The notes under the pieces: model-generated
The model's input: only the letters and a program-made list of their open reading frames with translations
Database searches by the model: none
Told to the model about the DNA's origin: nothing
Program-made: the position numbers and the translations under genes
UHGV virus genome: UHGV-0139471
Reading direction: 5' to 3' (one strand)
Length of the DNA stretch: 21,066 nt
Source of the DNA: a virus
Shown: one piece after another, positions 3,048-8,216 of the stretch
Layout: the number at the start of each line of letters is the position of its first letter
Position numbering within the stretch: position 1 is the first letter of the stretch

Positions 3048-3599
3048 TTATTTCTCCATACACAAAGATTTATTCGCCACGACGCCCGGAGCTGCACACT
3101 CGCGGGCGTCACTATTTTCTGGCAGGCAATAAACACGAGAAATCAGGTTGAGAAACGTCATCAGCGTGACCCTGAACTGGTAGGCGATATCATTCAGACT
3201 TTGCCACTCCCCGTGTGTAACCACCCCATCATCGATATATTCCCGATAGGCGCTGACCAGCTCGCCGAGTTGTCCCACCAGCTCCGCCAGCTTCAAACCA
3301 ATCTCTTCGTTCTCGTCTTCATGAGCTGCGCCAGATACATGGATCCCGTTGTCGGTTTCACGTGAAAAAACATCGGCGATGTAGCTAACACCTGCTGCCT
3401 TCTGCAGGACCATTGCCCAGCCCATAGGGAATATCTGATCTCCACCAGCACGCAGCCGGTTAAAGATCGCGTCCTGGGTGGTATCCAGAATCTCAGCTGC
3501 TTCGATATAGCCACCAGGTAACGCGGCTATTGTTTTACGGATTGCTGCCACCAGCCACGCGGGCTGTTTTTCTACTTTCCAGGTTGGTTCATTACCCAC
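3048..3599 (-). CDS. CII-like lysogeny regulatory protein (phage 186 CII / CP76-type)
   Basis: Track ORF 3048..3686 overlaps cro; a GTG at 3599 preceded by AAGGGG Shine-Dalgarno lies just downstream of the cro stop and gives 183 aa. Segment AAEILDTTQDAIFNRLRAGGDQIFPMGWAMVL resembles the HTH region of 186-type CII as I recall it. Confidence 0.5.
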   Translation of the reverse strand: MGNEPTWKVEKQPAWLVAAIRKTIAALPGGYIEAAEILDTTQDAIFNRLRAGGDQIFPMGWAMVLQKAAGVSYIADVFSRETDNGIHVSGAAHEDENEEIGLKLAELVGQLGELVSAYREYIDDGVVTHGEWQSLNDIAYQFRVTLMTFLNLISRVYCLPENSDARECAAPGVVANKSLCMEK

Positions 3600-3627
3600 G
3601 GTGTACCCCTTATCTCTGTGGTTCCTA

Positions 3628-3837
3628 TCAAACTTTTTGTTCTTTAAGCTTGCTATACAGCTCCGGTTGGAAAACAAGTTTCCCATCGGTGCGGTACGCG
3701 GCTTCAGCAGCCCTCCCTTTTGGGATCAAGCGACCGGGTCTGTTCCGCCACTGATAAACAGCTTCGCTGGATATGCCAAAGAACTCGGCTACCTTCTCAG
3801 CGTTTCCAAAGTACTTTTCAACATCATCGGTGGTCAT
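3628..3837 (-). CDS. Cro-like HTH repressor
   Basis: 69 aa; HTH-like segment VAEFFGISSEAVYQWRN; GGAG Shine-Dalgarno 6 nt upstream; divergent from the cI-like gene across a 100-bp operator region. Confidence 0.7.
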   Translation of the reverse strand: MTTDDVEKYFGNAEKVAEFFGISSEAVYQWRNRPGRLIPKGRAAEAAYRTDGKLVFQPELYSKLKEQKV

Positions 3838-3851
3838 AATGGCTCCTTTAA

Positions 3852-3865
3852 CTAAGTTTGATTAG
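3852..3865. promoter_or_regulatory. operator-like palindrome CTAAGTTTGATTAG (OR-type site overlapping pR)
   Basis: 14-bp CTAAG-N5-TTAG inverted repeat just downstream of the predicted pR -10 element. Confidence 0.5.
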
Positions 3866-3894
3866 ATAATAATTACCAATCTATCTTTGGTCAA
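3866..3894 (-). promoter_or_regulatory. pR-like promoter for cro and the leftward early operon
   Basis: On the minus strand: -35 TTGACC (3894..3889), 17-bp spacer, -10 TATTAT (3871..3866). Confidence 0.5.
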
Positions 3895-3900
3895 TAAAAA

Positions 3901-3914
3901 CTAAGATTGCTTAG
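3901..3914. promoter_or_regulatory. operator-like palindrome CTAAGATTGCTTAG
   Basis: Near-perfect 14-bp inverted repeat (CTAAG-ATTG-CTTAG) 24 bp upstream of the cI-like start. Confidence 0.5.
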
Positions 3915-3937
3915 CTTGATTGACTACTGGTGTGTAA

Positions 3938-4564
3938 ATGGAAACTGTCGGACAACGAATAAAATCGCTTAGGCGAATCACCAGAACCTCACAAAAAGAG
4001 CTTGGGAAGTTTTGTGGGGTCAGTGATGTCGCAGTTGGGTATTGGGAAAAGGACGTAAACGTCCCAGGAGGGGAATCTCTTTCCAAACTAGCAAAATTCT
4101 TCAATACATCAATTGATTACATACTTTTTGGCACTGAGTTTGAGGGAAACTTAATAACTAAGATGCGAAAAGTTCCCGTGATATCGTGGGTGCAAGCAGG
4201 ATTATTCACTGAATCAAAGCCTGAAGATGTCTTGCATGATGCCGAAAAATGGGTGGAAACGTCTCTCCGCATCAGCGATAACTCGTTTGCCCTTGAAGTA
4301 AAGGGAGACTCAATGACAAATCCTAATGGACTGCCCACGATTCCTGAAGGCGCAACGGTCATCGTTGATCCAGACATTGAGCCAATTCATGGAAAGATTG
4401 TAGTTGCACGAATAGATGGGACCAACGAGGCCACGGTCAAAAAACTGGTTGTAGACGGTCCGCAAAAATTTCTTGTCCCGCTAAATCCCCGTTATCCTAA
4501 CATCGCCATCAATGGTAACTGCGTCATTATTGGTGTGGTTAAAGGCGTTCAATACGAGCTCTGA
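3938..4564 (+). CDS. cI-like prophage repressor (HTH plus S24 LexA-like autopeptidase domain)
   Basis: 208 aa; N-terminal HTH (QKELGKFCGVSDVAVGYWE); C-terminal Ser/Lys dyad context (GDSM ... TVKKL) typical of LexA/cI self-cleaving repressors; divergent from cro. Confidence 0.9.
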   Translation: METVGQRIKSLRRITRTSQKELGKFCGVSDVAVGYWEKDVNVPGGESLSKLAKFFNTSIDYILFGTEFEGNLITKMRKVPVISWVQAGLFTESKPEDVLHDAEKWVETSLRISDNSFALEVKGDSMTNPNGLPTIPEGATVIVDPDIEPIHGKIVVARIDGTNEATVKKLVVDGPQKFLVPLNPRYPNIAINGNCVIIGVVKGVQYEL

Positions 4565-4583
4565 TCTAAGCTAATCTCCCTTC

Positions 4584-4616
4584 GACACCAAGCTAAGAAA
4601 AGTTTGGTGTTTTTTC
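4584..4616 (+). terminator. rho-independent terminator-like hairpin after the cI-like gene
   Basis: Stem acaccaa (4585-4591) / ttggtgt (4604-4610), 12-nt loop, followed by TTTTT. Confidence 0.5.
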
Positions 4617-4645
4617 TTGACGACAAAACTAAGTTAAGTTAGATT
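4617..4645 (+). promoter_or_regulatory. pL-like promoter with overlapping operator (CTAAGTTAAGTTAG at 4629-4642)
   Basis: -35 TTGACG (4617-4622), 17-bp spacer, -10 TAGATT (4640-4645); the third CTAAG-N5-TTAG palindrome overlaps spacer and -10. Confidence 0.5.
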
Positions 4646-4749
4646 TTCATCTATCAACAGCGAAGAGGCAGGACGCCCACGAAGTAGCCGCCCGGGGCAT
4701 ATGAAGTCCGGGATGATTCGCTGACAGATAAACCAAATAGGAACAGATC

Positions 4750-4983
4750 ATGGCAAGCAAAGGCATTGAAAACCTTATCAAGGACGCATTAGCAAACGGC
4801 TGTCATGTAGTCCGTAAAGCGCATCGCTTCGAGGTAAGCAAGAAAGGCCAAAAATCAATCACTCTTATTATTTGTGAAGATGGCACAGCTTACCGGGGAG
4901 ATATTGACCTAACGATCGCCATAGCCATTCGCACTCAAAAAGAAATGCGCAGCATCCTCGGCCTGCCGGCCAAGGCAAGTTAA
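4750..4983 (+). CDS. hypothetical protein (77 aa); weak HicA-toxin-like resemblance
   Basis: AGGAAC Shine-Dalgarno 7 nt upstream; occupies the first position of the pL-side operon. Segment NGCHVVRKAHRFEV and C-terminal RSILGLP loosely resemble HicA (G-W-x-x-R-x-x-GSH ... ILKQAGL), but the GSH motif is not conserved. Confidence 0.5.
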   Translation: MASKGIENLIKDALANGCHVVRKAHRFEVSKKGQKSITLIICEDGTAYRGDIDLTIAIAIRTQKEMRSILGLPAKAS

Positions 4984-6100
4984 TTACCACAGGTATCTTC
5001 GGGAGGGGTTGCGAAGCTGGATTGACCACCAGCAACAGAAACTCACCCGACATACAGCAGCCGTTTAACCCACGGCGTCGGGGGTCCAGTAGACCTGGAT
5101 TAATACTGTAGGGGTTGTGCCGGTTGGTCGCCGGCGCCCCGCCCGAAGATACCTGAACGAACATGGCGAAGCCGACAGCGTTGAAGGCGATTTTCTCGGT
5201 TTGCGCGCTAAACAATAGCGGGGGTGAAATCGGGGCGGAGAAGCAGAATCCGCGATGTCGGGACTTGATACTTCCGGCCATACCAACAAGCCGAATGATC
5301 GCGTAACGATCCTTTGCATCTGCCCCGGCGAGGTGGCGCCGCCGGACCGGGGTAGATGAATCGTACACAACATGAAAGCGCATTCCATCTTCATCCGTCG
5401 TGGGGACTGGTTTGTAACTGAAGGAGTGCGCTTCCAGTTGTGAACGGCAATATTCACGACCGTTGTATGGCACATGCAGCGTTAGCAGCCCGGATGGTTC
5501 CCTTGAAGTTCCATGCGCTATCCGGACAACTGGAATGTGCAAGCTAAGTGTTTCAGGCACGACGTGCGCCCCACCAGCGCGGCGAAAAGGTGTGACGCCC
5601 GGGAAGAGTCCGGGACACAACGATGAGGGCATTGACGAGCAAGGCACAGAGTCTGGTTCGATTCCAGACGCCAGGATAGTTCTATATCTGGTGATGGGCA
5701 GGGAAAAGGTCCGTTCGATTCGGACACCGGCAGTGCTCTCTTCGTTGTGGTAATTGCGGCTATGCGCACGTGACGAGCCAAACCCGTTCAATGAATGCGT
5801 TTCCGGGCAGTGTACGTCGCCGGTTATGGCTTAACCCGGCAGGTGGAGGCACCACCGCCACAACCTAGTTAACTGTGCTGTGTGTAGTCTTGGCGGTTAT
5901 CCAGTTTTCCACTATCCAAAGGAGGAAGAGGATAACGTTCTGATGGATAACCGCCCTTTTTACACAATACACAAGAGCATCACCGGGCGACGGGCTCATA
6001 ACCCAATCCACCCGGGCGGCGTCCTAACCGCAGGTGCTCTTCTGTGTTGTGTACGGAGAAATTCCCGGCGGTGGCAGCCGCCTTTCGAGAGGGTAAAACC

Positions 6101-6472
6101 ATGAGTAATGATCGCATGACAGTCGTGCCCGATTTCCTGGGCGAACTGGACGCCGGCGTATTCATGAACAAGATTGCGGCGGCTCTGAATACCACCGCGC
6201 TCGGCGTTCTGAACAACGGCAACAAAGGCAAAGTAGTCCTGACCTTTGATTTTGAGCGTATGGGCAACTCTGTTGAAGAGAAGCGCGTCAAGATTAAGCA
6301 CAAGCTGAACTACAGCACCCCAACTCCCCGCGGCAAAGCGTCGGAAGAGGACACCACCGAAACACCAATGTGGGTCAATAAAGGCGGCAAGCTCACCATC
6401 CTGCAGGAGGATCAAGGGCAACTCTTCGGTATCACCGGCACGGTGGACGGAAAGCTTAAAGCGGCTCAGTGA
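6101..6472 (+). CDS. hypothetical prophage protein (YfdP-like by size and position)
   Basis: ATG at 6101 with GAGAGGG Shine-Dalgarno; 123 aa; first gene of a rightward operon whose next two genes match the YfdQ/YfdR pattern of E. coli CPS-53. Confidence 0.65.
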   Translation: MSNDRMTVVPDFLGELDAGVFMNKIAAALNTTALGVLNNGNKGKVVLTFDFERMGNSVEEKRVKIKHKLNYSTPTPRGKASEEDTTETPMWVNKGGKLTILQEDQGQLFGITGTVDGKLKAAQ

Positions 6473-6528
6473 TCCGCACGCACAAATTCACTGATACCAC
6501 TTCGCTAATCAGTTAATAAGGAATTTTT

Positions 6529-7356
6529 ATGTCTCAGTTAGACAGCGGTACTTTTCAGCAGGTTAAAGACCTGGTGCTTTCCGGTTATCACCTGAACGAT
6601 ATCCACGGTCTGGCCTGCCCGACCGCCCTGTTACCACAAAATACAAGCGTTGAAAGCCTGGAGCGTTTTTCTTATGAGCGCTTCCGTTTCCGTGGAGCCA
6701 TGGACACAACCAGTATTGATGATTTCGTTCGCTATTCTGTTGGTTATGCCCAGGAAGAAGAAAAAGCCCGCTGCTTTATCGATGCGAACAACATGCTGGC
6801 CCGTTCTATCTTCAATATCGGCACGCTGGATAACCCAGGTCATGCTGACAACGTCGCCTCGATCAAGCTAAAAAAGACAGCGCCCTTCCGCGCGTTACTG
6901 GCGATCAACGGCGATCACCTTAATCAGAAGCAAATCGCCGAATGGCTCGAAGACTGGAGCGACTATCTCACTGCGTTCGATGCTGACGGACAGACAATGA
7001 AAATTGCACAGGCAGCGCAGGCGGTTCGCCGTGTCACTATCCAGCAAACTAATGCCGCCGATCATGAAGACGGTGATTTCAGCGGCAAAAAATCACTGAT
7101 GCAAAGTATCGAAGCCAGCAGTAAAGATGTTATGCCGGTCGCTTTTGAATTTATGTGTGTACCGTATGAGGGCTTGGGCGAGCGTCGTTTCAGTCTGCGC
7201 AACAGTCTGCTGAAAAGTAGCGACCCGGTTTTCGTTCTGCGTATTGTCCAACTGGAGGCCCAGGAAGAAGCGATCGCCAATGAGTTCCGCGATCTGCTGG
7301 TTGGCAAGTTCGACGGCAAGCCGGTAGAAACCTTTATCGGCAACTTCAAAGCCTGA
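6529..7356 (+). CDS. DUF2303-type prophage protein (YfdQ-like)
   Basis: 275 aa, AAGGAA Shine-Dalgarno; size and neighbourhood (followed by an HD-domain gene) match YfdQ of CPS-53 from memory. Confidence 0.7.
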   Translation: MSQLDSGTFQQVKDLVLSGYHLNDIHGLACPTALLPQNTSVESLERFSYERFRFRGAMDTTSIDDFVRYSVGYAQEEEKARCFIDANNMLARSIFNIGTLDNPGHADNVASIKLKKTAPFRALLAINGDHLNQKQIAEWLEDWSDYLTAFDADGQTMKIAQAAQAVRRVTIQQTNAADHEDGDFSGKKSLMQSIEASSKDVMPVAFEFMCVPYEGLGERRFSLRNSLLKSSDPVFVLRIVQLEAQEEAIANEFRDLLVGKFDGKPVETFIGNFKA

Positions 7357-8016: not shown

Positions 8017-8216
8017 TGCCACATATGAAAGTTAAAGAACTGGTCGCTGCAGCTTACGCTGCGGCACCAGATCTACCACCGGAAGCGGCAGAGTTAATGC
8101 GCAATATTGCTTCACGACTGGATGTAACGTTCATCGCCCTTACCGAAGCAATGGACCAAAACACAGCGCAGGCTGCCGTGTTGGCAGTCCTGAATGGGGT
8201 TAAAAACAATGGCTAA
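8016..8216 (+). CDS. hypothetical protein (66 aa)
   Basis: ATG overlaps the stop of the HD gene (TAATG); Ala-rich helical-looking peptide. Confidence 0.45.
   Translation: MPHMKVKELVAAAYAAAPDLPPEAAELMRNIASRLDVTFIALTEAMDQNTAQAAVLAVLNGVKNNG

Follow-up and report, generated by a model that had tools for sequence, protein, structure and literature searches.

We analyzed the leader of an early operon in UHGV virus genome UHGV-0139471, a DNA of 21,066 nucleotides (nt) hereafter called the window. The window is a lambdoid temperate phage, with Klebsiella phage Kp4866-6 as its best match (97.8%). A hairpin followed by a T-tract, at positions 5892-5961 between the CI-like repressor gene and a yfdP-like gene, is probably the intrinsic terminator and the Hfq-binding 3′ module of a prophage small RNA of the DicF/sRNA-17 type. 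The element is a diverged, insertion-bearing member of this class of prophage small RNAs. It is fairly ordinary and is not a leader-peptide attenuator. The predicted parts of the small RNA are as follows.

5744-5864, + strand: structured 5′ domain of the long RNA, in which GUUGUGGU (5744-5751) pairs with GCCACAAC (5857-5864) and a GGUGG-AGGCA-CCACC hairpin occupies 5842-5856 (RNAfold of 5744-5962).
5865-5891, + strand: single-stranded seed region (…GCUGUGUGUAGUCUU) ending in a U-rich stretch beside the hairpin; unpaired in the centroid fold, and the seed precedes four unrelated stems.
5892-5955, + strand: terminator hairpin of the small RNA, with a 12-base-pair (bp) basal stem and an imperfect upper helix; −28.8 kcal/mol, covariation, and a match to the family model R1 (50.5 bits at 5876-5962).
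5917-5944, + strand: lineage-specific GA-rich loop insertion (AAAGGAGGAAGAGGAUAACGUUCUGAUG) of about 28 nt with approximate boundaries, bearing a second GGAUAAC, a Shine-Dalgarno (SD)-like AGGAGG and the ATG at 5943; it is a 28-nt insert relative to the DicF model and is missing from most relatives.
5957-5961, + strand: U-tract and predicted 3′ end of the small RNA, a T5 after the stem; the 3′ end of sRNA-17 lies in the homologous T-tract, and the 53-nt form of DicF ends at its own terminator (PMC5069750).

Hairpin and T-tract in the operon leader

The letters of the window were read directly to locate the hairpin arms, the T-tract, the AGGAGG, the ATG and the open reading frame (ORF). GGCGGTTATCC at 5892-5902 and GGATAACCGCC at 5945-5955 form a perfect 11-bp inverted repeat, which the A5903-T5944 pair lengthens to 12 bp (5892-5903/5944-5955). 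On the 3′ side the stem is followed by C5956 and then T5957-5961. The inverted repeat and T-tract that a preliminary description, made from the sequence alone, had placed at 5892-5962 are thus present. That description had called for RNA folding of 5880-5970, which gave −36.4 kcal/mol compared with −18.7 ± 3.1 kcal/mol in 200 dinucleotide shuffles (z −5.68); none of the shuffles folded as well, so the fold is far beyond chance.

Intrinsic terminators combine a stable GC-containing stem with an immediate U-run, and both were found here (−28.8 kcal/mol; U5 starting 1 nt past the stem). The site is predicted to be a terminator-type structure in the leader of a long + strand operon. It was not listed by a simple terminator scan because its loop is 40 nt and the scan limited loops to 8 nt.

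Conservation of the hairpin in related loci

Related loci were collected with the 42-nt block 5977-6018 as the anchor (for the viral scan, 27 nt of this block) from the genomes of eight enterobacterial species, about 150 viral contigs, and the annotated phages phiNP, LLS, SfV, mEp460, ST64B, and Stx2a_1447. A hairpin with a T-run was present at the homologous spot in 72 of the 74 distinct upstream variants (146 loci), and the two exceptions were rearranged. The stems differ among the variants, with at least six sequences (GGCGGTTATCCA, GGCGGTACCAG, GGCGGTGCCAG, GCGGCGTC, GCGGCATCC, GCGGCGCCAG, TGCCCATC).

In a 27-sequence alignment, 93.1% of the stem cells were paired, and 6 of the 11 pairs had changed on both sides. 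Double-change cells numbered 38, as compared with 12.4 ± 2.3 in shuffles (0 of 500 had as many), and sliding the partner arm collapsed the pairing signal. Many stem cells are G-U pairs that would be A-C mismatches if read on the other strand; therefore, selection acts on the + strand RNA. The covariation analysis of homologous leaders that the preliminary description had suggested thus supported the terminator stem, but not the alternative pairing that it had also proposed (see below).

These data bear on the idea that the site acts as a DNA-level inverted repeat, either a protein-binding palindrome or a DnaA-box-like TTATCC cluster (5897-5902 and the complements of 5930-5935 and 5945-5950). 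Three TTATCC cores do lie within 60 bp, each agreeing with TTATCCACA at seven of nine positions. However, the relatives keep complementarity and not letters, with TTATCC swapped for TACC, CGTC, CATCC, and others, and the G-U pairs are meaningful only in + strand RNA. We consider a DNA-level function very improbable.

Conservation was not limited to the stem. The TT immediately 5′ of GGCGG was invariant or nearly so, and the seed GCUGUGUGUAG(U/A)CUU was kept before four unrelated stems in six genera (Klebsiella, Citrobacter, Shigella, Salmonella, Escherichia, and Mixta). At the level of sequence, this conservation of the seed argues for a base-pairing role. It also bears on whether the site is a terminator only, which would time the early operon in a manner comparable to lambda tL1 and release short RNAs as by-products without a role in trans. 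The LLS type, which has an unrelated hairpin but keeps the position and the T-tract, fits such a function, as do seeds that vary by lineage and the absence of an ftsZ match in the window RNA. The retention of the seed before unrelated stems in six genera speaks against it, as do the nearly invariant U-rich stretch before the stem and the fact that two homologues, DicF and sRNA-17, both accumulate and show phenotypes (PMC5069750, PMC7719688). We therefore regard a terminator without an RNA function as rather unlikely.

Homology to DicF

DicF of the Qin prophage (Rfam RF00039) is produced by termination and RNase E as a 53-nt form, and with an RNase III-dependent 5′ end as a 190-nt form; both end at the terminator (PMC5069750; 10.1101/2023.04.14.536235). 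A 2016 study reported no BLAST matches for DicF in phage genomes (PMC5069750). In our comparison, the Qin dicF region and the related locus L060 shared 76% identity over 182 nt (BLAST, E 3e-31), spanning the upstream flank, seed, hairpin, and U-tract, and L060 bears the seed and the downstream module of the window. Three further loci (L088, L151, and L077) were 89-92% identical with the flank upstream of dicF.

A covariance model, R1, was built from 22 phage hairpins with Qin left out. Its single match in the Qin locus was dicF (L011:2379-2441, 31.7 bits, E 2e-5), and it also detected ST64B, which was outside the training set (45.4 bits). Alignment A2 agreed with this homology. The BLAST chain, the shared flanks, R1 and A2 thus place the element and Qin dicF in both sequence and positional homology. 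DicF was also the only Rfam family to match the element.

The two RNAs share their setting and anatomy. Both lie in an early operon under a CI/DicA-type repressor: in the window a CI-like gene, a promoter, and operator repeats are located upstream, and the Qin layout is alike. Both have a U-rich stretch, a stem beginning with GGCGG, and a tail of CCGCC(C)UUUUU, with GUUGUGG at the approximate 5′ end of the long form and a long duplex between the terminator and the next gene. GTTGTGG is invariant in the window, SfV, mEp460, LLS, and Qin. The sequence has the features of an Hfq-type 3′ module (UCUU, the 12-bp stem, and U5, with the flanking TT and the T-run conserved). As judged from these letters, the anatomy common to both (a single-stranded seed, a near-invariant UU, a stem that opens with GGCGG, and a U-tail) is the one described for Hfq binding by RNAs of this kind. 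The window element departs from DicF in its seed, in a loop insertion of 28 nt, and in a longer stem that contains AU (GGCGGUUAUCCA); it lacks ftsZ complementarity, is followed by yfdP and not by dicB, and scores 16.5 bits against the Rfam threshold of 48.

Homology to sRNA-17 and a 5′ domain shared with STnc100

In E. coli K1 RS218, an mEp460-like prophage carries sRNA-17, whose 193 nt were mapped by rapid amplification of cDNA ends (PMC7719688). Its authors described its own ArcA-regulated promoter and drew no relation to DicF (PMC7719688). We carried its position to mEp460 by arithmetic from the published coordinates (L014:2319-2511). The full-length primers in the supplement of that paper (CGTTGTGGTGAATGCG... 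and the reverse complement of ...CTGGTACCGCTCTTTT) are homologues of the window from 5743 onwards and of the hairpin and T-tract; therefore, the 5′ end of sRNA-17 is at the conserved GUUGUGG motif and its 3′ end is in the T-tract that follows the homologous hairpin. Both RNAs occupy the same slot between a cI-like gene and yfdP, start at CGUUGUGG, and end in a hairpin T-tract, and the length of sRNA-17 fits that of the predicted long form of the window minus the insertion. The homology is one of the ends only, the central part having diverged: relative to the window, sRNA-17 has another seed (GCCACUGCUUU), another central domain, and a short loop.

The 5′ domain is shared with a third RNA, STnc100 (RF02076), and its relative PasD, which have an UGGUGAAU...CACCA closing helix and a (C/G)G(G/U)GGAGGCACC hairpin. 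In the window, the UGGUG/CACCA helix lies at 5744-5751/5857-5864 and the GGAGGCACC hairpin at 5842-5856. The terminator and seed of consensus STnc100 differ from those of the window. The SfV homologue of the whole unit (L016 2300-2515) matched STnc100 end to end with 39.5 bits (threshold 47) and ends in the same T-tract. As a separate observation, the SfV unit joins an STnc100 5′ domain to a DicF-type 3′ module. PasD and, by the account of a preprint, STnc100 are located near late-region genes such as Q and LpxR (10.64898/2026.05.13.724894).

Other small RNAs were considered and set aside. AgvB and AsxR, anti-small-RNAs considered for CA-rich motifs, belong to a late-promoter moron site (PMC4104026), and Klebsiella DinR is an unrelated RNA from the dinI 3′ untranslated region (UTR).

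Evidence against membership in the DicF/sRNA-17 class

Several results weigh against assigning the window element to this class. The window scored 16.5 bits with the Rfam DicF model at 5879-5956 with the 28-nt insert, below the gathering threshold of 48; for comparison, Qin dicF scored 76.7, L060 30.3, and phiNP 20.5 bits. At gathering thresholds, Rfam gave nothing at this element in the window and 11 related loci. STnc100 was not matched in the window at its threshold of 47 bits, even when only 291 nt were searched. Intrinsic terminators do not typically have a structured loop of 40 nt. LLS, Buttiauxella, and Enterobacter wuhouensis carry a different short stem (TGCCCATC/GGTGGGCA); therefore, selection may act on termination and not on a particular RNA body. 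In the mutant deleted for sRNA-17, yfdP rose 95-fold (PMC7719688); this could not be used as a sign of terminator loss, and the argument was dropped because the deletion primers keep the hairpin.

The pairing potential also differed from that of DicF. In a crude test with RNAduplex against E. coli ftsZ (−45 to +25), the window RNA gave −21.9 kcal/mol (z +1.7) and DicF −37.6 kcal/mol (z −2.0). The window RNA, which did worse than shuffled sequences here, thus has no complementarity to the E. coli ftsZ leader, and a target like that of DicF should therefore not be presumed. Within the window, the only match to the seed complement with three or fewer mismatches was the antisense of the seed itself, and the best other seed duplexes (−24.8 kcal/mol near 8150-8180) were at the level expected from multiple testing. 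Pairing of the seed with the CA-rich sequence past the terminator (GUGUGUA/UACACAA) was rejected as incidental; the SfV and mEp460 types do not retain it, and the conserved stem further downstream competes with it.

Alternative helix and loop insertion

The preliminary description had read the site as an attenuator-like leader with mutually exclusive hairpins and a leader peptide. The terminator in the leader of a long + strand operon stands, whereas the mechanism of a leader peptide and alternative helices was unsupported, as neither the alternative partner nor the ORF is conserved.

The alternative partner of the 5′ arm, ggataacg (GGATAACG, 5930-5937), is present. Its GGATAAC at 5930-5936 repeats the seven bases with which the 3′ arm begins, and it pairs with 5896-5902 over 7 bp, and not over the 8 bp implied at first, because 5895/5937 is G/G. 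The alternative helix is within the minimum free energy (MFE) structure of nascent transcripts ending at 5937-5948 (−16.6 to −17.2 kcal/mol). With the whole 3′ arm transcribed, it is the less stable fold by 8.6 kcal/mol (−28.8 compared with −20.2 kcal/mol when forced), and its equilibrium probability is about 1e-5. The folding model thus indicates a thermodynamically real helix in nascent RNA.

This pairing had been put forward as a switch whose conservation could be judged by aligning related leaders, and the comparison confined the partner to the lineage of the window itself. The loop insertion was found in four sequence types only, namely the window type, ST64B, Mixta/Erwinia, and L152; in most relatives the loop is short and lacks the partner. 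In ST64B, Mixta/Erwinia, and L152, the homologous insertion segment (GGCGACAG, AGATAAT) is unable to pair with the 5′ arm, and the nascent folds are unlike each other. The alternative helix is thus confined to the window type and occurs neither in these three types nor in any short-loop form. The insertion pairs with the ancestral CU-rich loop, and the hairpin is stabilised (−28.8 compared with about −21 kcal/mol). We propose that the second GGAUAAC, which transiently pairs with the 5′ arm, is a by-product of the loop insertion.

As the preliminary description had noted, an ATG at 5943 lies inside the structure and opens an ORF (5943-6104) of 53 codons, MDNRPFYTIHKSITGRR..., whose TGA at 6102-6104 overlaps the yfdP-like ATG at 6101 as ATGA. 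The AGGAGG-type SD that it had placed near 5918-5924 was found at 5920-5925, 1-2 nt from there. The leader peptide proposed from this ATG fared less well. The ORF had no Pfam or PHROG match; it was cut to 27 aa in the near-identical relative L036, and its length across types was 53, 27, or 10 aa or none, most relatives having no ATG in frame. The spacer further downstream varies by lengths other than multiples of three, which breaks the frame. In all insertion types, an SD-like run lies 8-11 nt before a loop AUG or GUG; the window has ACG there and its AUG 8 nt further on. Ribosome binding in the loop may thus have a role.

A 53-aa protein translationally coupled to yfdP would account for the open frame and its ATGA overlap. 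Its lack of Pfam and PHROG homologues, its shortening to 27 aa in L036 and absence elsewhere, and the maintenance of the DNA as RNA structure with covariation and frame-breaking indels all argue against such a protein. We see next to no likelihood in it, and a coding role for 5943-6104 was rejected for want of families and of ORF conservation.

In a regulated attenuator, the nascent 5896-5902/5930-5936 helix would be an anti-terminator, and a ribosome in the loop (AGGAGG/GAGGA, ATG 5943) or another factor would set termination against read-through into yfdP. The alternative helix covers 10 of the 12 bases of the 5′ arm and is the nascent MFE structure to about 5948, and a 7-nt repeat of the 3′ arm arising by chance within a 40-nt loop is unlikely (roughly 0.002, our estimate). 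The SD-like run recurs before AUG or GUG in every insertion-type relative, and the ORF of the window overlaps yfdP. Such attenuators have a conserved leader ORF and conserved mutually exclusive anti-terminator and terminator helices; however, the leader ORF, with its 53 aa in the window, has only 27 aa in L036 and is missing in most relatives, and the helix exists in the window type alone. The terminator arm and U-tract determine the sequence of the peptide, which has no family match, and the SD-like run is paired inside the upper helix. With just 18 nt between ATG 5943 and the release point, a ribosome could hardly load before RNA polymerase decides, and the terminator is favoured by 8.6 kcal/mol at equilibrium. 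We regard regulated attenuation as quite improbable. Like trp-type leader-peptide attenuators and the phage early terminators read through by N or put, the window has a terminator in an operon leader, to which it adds a transient alternative helix; in contrast to them, neither a conserved leader ORF nor conserved alternative helices were found, and no nut or put element could be recognised upstream.

The GA-rich insertion of the window type, ST64B, Mixta/Erwinia, and L152 may convert a constitutive DicF-type terminator to a conditional one. In such a case, the nascent fold may occupy the 5′ arm first (by the duplicated GGAUAAC in the window), and the loop has the SD-like run and a start codon. 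If true, the choice between a small RNA with a stop and read-through to yfdP...xis/int would be set by folding kinetics, ribosome loading, or Hfq. Taken jointly, this possibility and the possibility that DicF-type RNAs are 3′ trailers of a degenerate tRNA (see the last section) appear unlikely to us.

Model for the DicF/sRNA-17-type RNA

The assignment to the DicF/sRNA-17 class is based on the structure and its covariation, on homology with dicF and sRNA-17, on the position of the unit, and on the ends that were mapped for the homologous RNA. How efficiently transcription terminates in the window phage, where the RNA is processed, whether it depends on Hfq, and what it targets are inferences. 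Upon derepression, transcription would start from the operator-bearing promoter at 4617-4645 and pass through the structured leader. Part of it would halt at 5957-5961, giving the small RNA, and the rest would go into yfdP and beyond. The long form would be about 217 nt (5744 to about 5961), with its 5′ end made by cleavage in a 5616-5637/5728-5749 duplex, by analogy with the RNase III step that yields the 190-nt DicF. The short form would be about 85 nt, with a 5′ end in the AU-rich stretch at about 5866-5878, as RNase E makes for the 53-nt DicF. The GU-rich seed GCUGUGUGUAGUCUU would be free for pairing with mRNA, while the terminator would restrict read-through into yfdP-yfdQ and later genes. 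The lineage of the window would have gained the GA-rich loop insertion of about 28 nt, lengthening the hairpin by pairing with the ancestral CU-rich loop.

DicF is usually viewed as a relic of defective E. coli prophages. The DicF-type module was found in many temperate phages that appear to be intact, from Klebsiella, Citrobacter, Shigella, Salmonella, and other enterobacteria, and in the phages of this analysis it was always in a repressor-controlled early leader upstream of yfdP. It ties together RNAs that go by three separate names, namely DicF, sRNA-17, and (by way of the 5′ domain) STnc100. In annotation, about 1.4 kb that are commonly left blank or given spurious small ORFs can now be labelled. 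Prophage induction would be expected to release a GU-seeded small RNA.

Genomic setting of the leader

The genes and signals around the element are as follows.

3048-3686, − strand: CII-like gene, diverging from the CI-like gene.
3628-3837, − strand: Cro (P22_Cro), diverging from the CI-like gene.
3938-4564, + strand: CI-like repressor gene with HTH_3 and Peptidase_S24 domains (Pfam PF01381, PF00717; PHROG 4, transcriptional repressor).
4584-4611, + strand: terminator-like hairpin directly 3′ of the repressor gene (terminator scan: 11-bp stem, 6-nt loop, T-run).
4617-4645, + strand: sigma-70-type promoter TTGACG-17-TAGATT under an operator-like ACTAAG..TTAG palindrome, a pL analogue; the sole + strand promoter match in 4500-6600.
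4750-4983, + strand: 77-codon ORF, the first after the pL-like promoter (PHROG 12911, function unknown; no Pfam match).
5616-5749, + strand: long-range 22-nt helix (5616-5637/5728-5749) around two tRNA-like T-arm hairpins (inverted repeat I3, 82% complementary).
5956-6058, + strand: three-way-junction RNA in the 5′ UTR of yfdP, with a long stem (5956-5981/6033-6058) and the apical 42-mer 5977-6018 (fold and RNAalifold).
6101-6472, + strand: yfdP-like gene, the first gene past the terminator (PHROG 204; YfdP family annotation in relatives).
6529 (start), + strand: yfdQ/DUF2303, after yfdP.

The palindrome ACTAAG-N4/5-(C)TTAG is present in three copies, two in the cro-cI intergenic region (3848-3868 and 3897-3917) and one at the promoter downstream of cI (4625-4645). 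These are probably repressor operators, analogues of OR and OL, and the 4617-4645 promoter is taken as a pL analogue because the overlapping palindrome recurs twice between cro and cI. The operon goes on to the exonuclease, xis, and int genes in annotated relatives, and it is the CI-side (repressor-side) early operon. The untranslated leader between the CI-like gene and yfdP is about 1.4 kb, with about 1.1 kb lacking a credible gene between the 77-codon ORF and yfdP. The hairpin is located about 1.2 kb past the CI-operator-bearing promoter and 140 nt before yfdP, the first conserved gene of the operon. Placed on the leader of the CI-side early operon, the site is therefore able to gate that operon. 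The same layout was found in phiNP, LLS, SfV, mEp460, ST64B, and Stx2a_1447.

The 77-aa ORF fills the slot of lambda N and is not arginine-rich. Just past it, 4990-5008/5137-5155 form a 19-nt inverted repeat (95% complementary) that encloses about 130 nt, and 4989-5155 is 80% identical in ST64B, forming a conserved structured leader segment. Public − strand coding sequences, gp36 and gp37, are annotated over the non-coding leader of mEp460 (L014 2024-2577); they are probably spurious because the leader is conserved at the RNA level.

The three-way-junction RNA directly follows the terminator, and its stem of about 21 bp takes in the U-tract. The fold of 5956-6103 had a z of −4.45, and RNAalifold of eight loci gave compensatory changes in 10 of 44 pairs. 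The apical 42-mer is identical in the eight species genomes, which are Klebsiella, Citrobacter, Kosakonia, Mixta, Erwinia, Enterobacter, Buttiauxella, and Pseudescherichia loci. No Rfam family matched 5956-6058. The structure could be an RNase III site or an element bound by a protein or RNA polymerase. Qin has an analogous long duplex between dicF and dicB.

tRNA-like elements in the leader

The GUUGUG of the 5′ domain can pair instead with 5616-5637 in the 22-nt duplex. The 5616-5637/5728-5749 duplex is a plausible candidate for an RNase III site at which cleavage would make the 5′ end of the long RNA. ARAGORN at default settings found no tRNA or transfer-messenger RNA (tmRNA) in the window. 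At relaxed settings, weak tRNA-like calls were obtained at 5598-5676 and 5651-5733, and a permuted-tmRNA call was regarded as spurious.

The leader at 5467-5750, including two canonical T-arm hairpins (CUGGUUCGAUUCCAG and GUCCGUUCGAUUCGGAC), is common to Stx2 phages and epsilon15-like Salmonella phages (positions 2501-2849 of L013, which is SPN9TCW, and 2501-2696 of L012). In the epsilon15-like phages, a genuine tRNA-Arg comes directly after the shared leader, and the 5′ acceptor strand of this tRNA has its start within GUUGUGG. A DicF-like seed and hairpin are located 48 nt after the tRNA-Arg in L013 (R1 match 2897-2956, 27.3 bits). The arrangement of these sequences suggests that DicF-type RNAs may have begun as tRNA 3′ trailers and that the 5′ domain may be a degenerate tRNA. 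In a Mixta prophage locus (L006 1130-1315), C4 antisense RNA and IsrK were matched above threshold.

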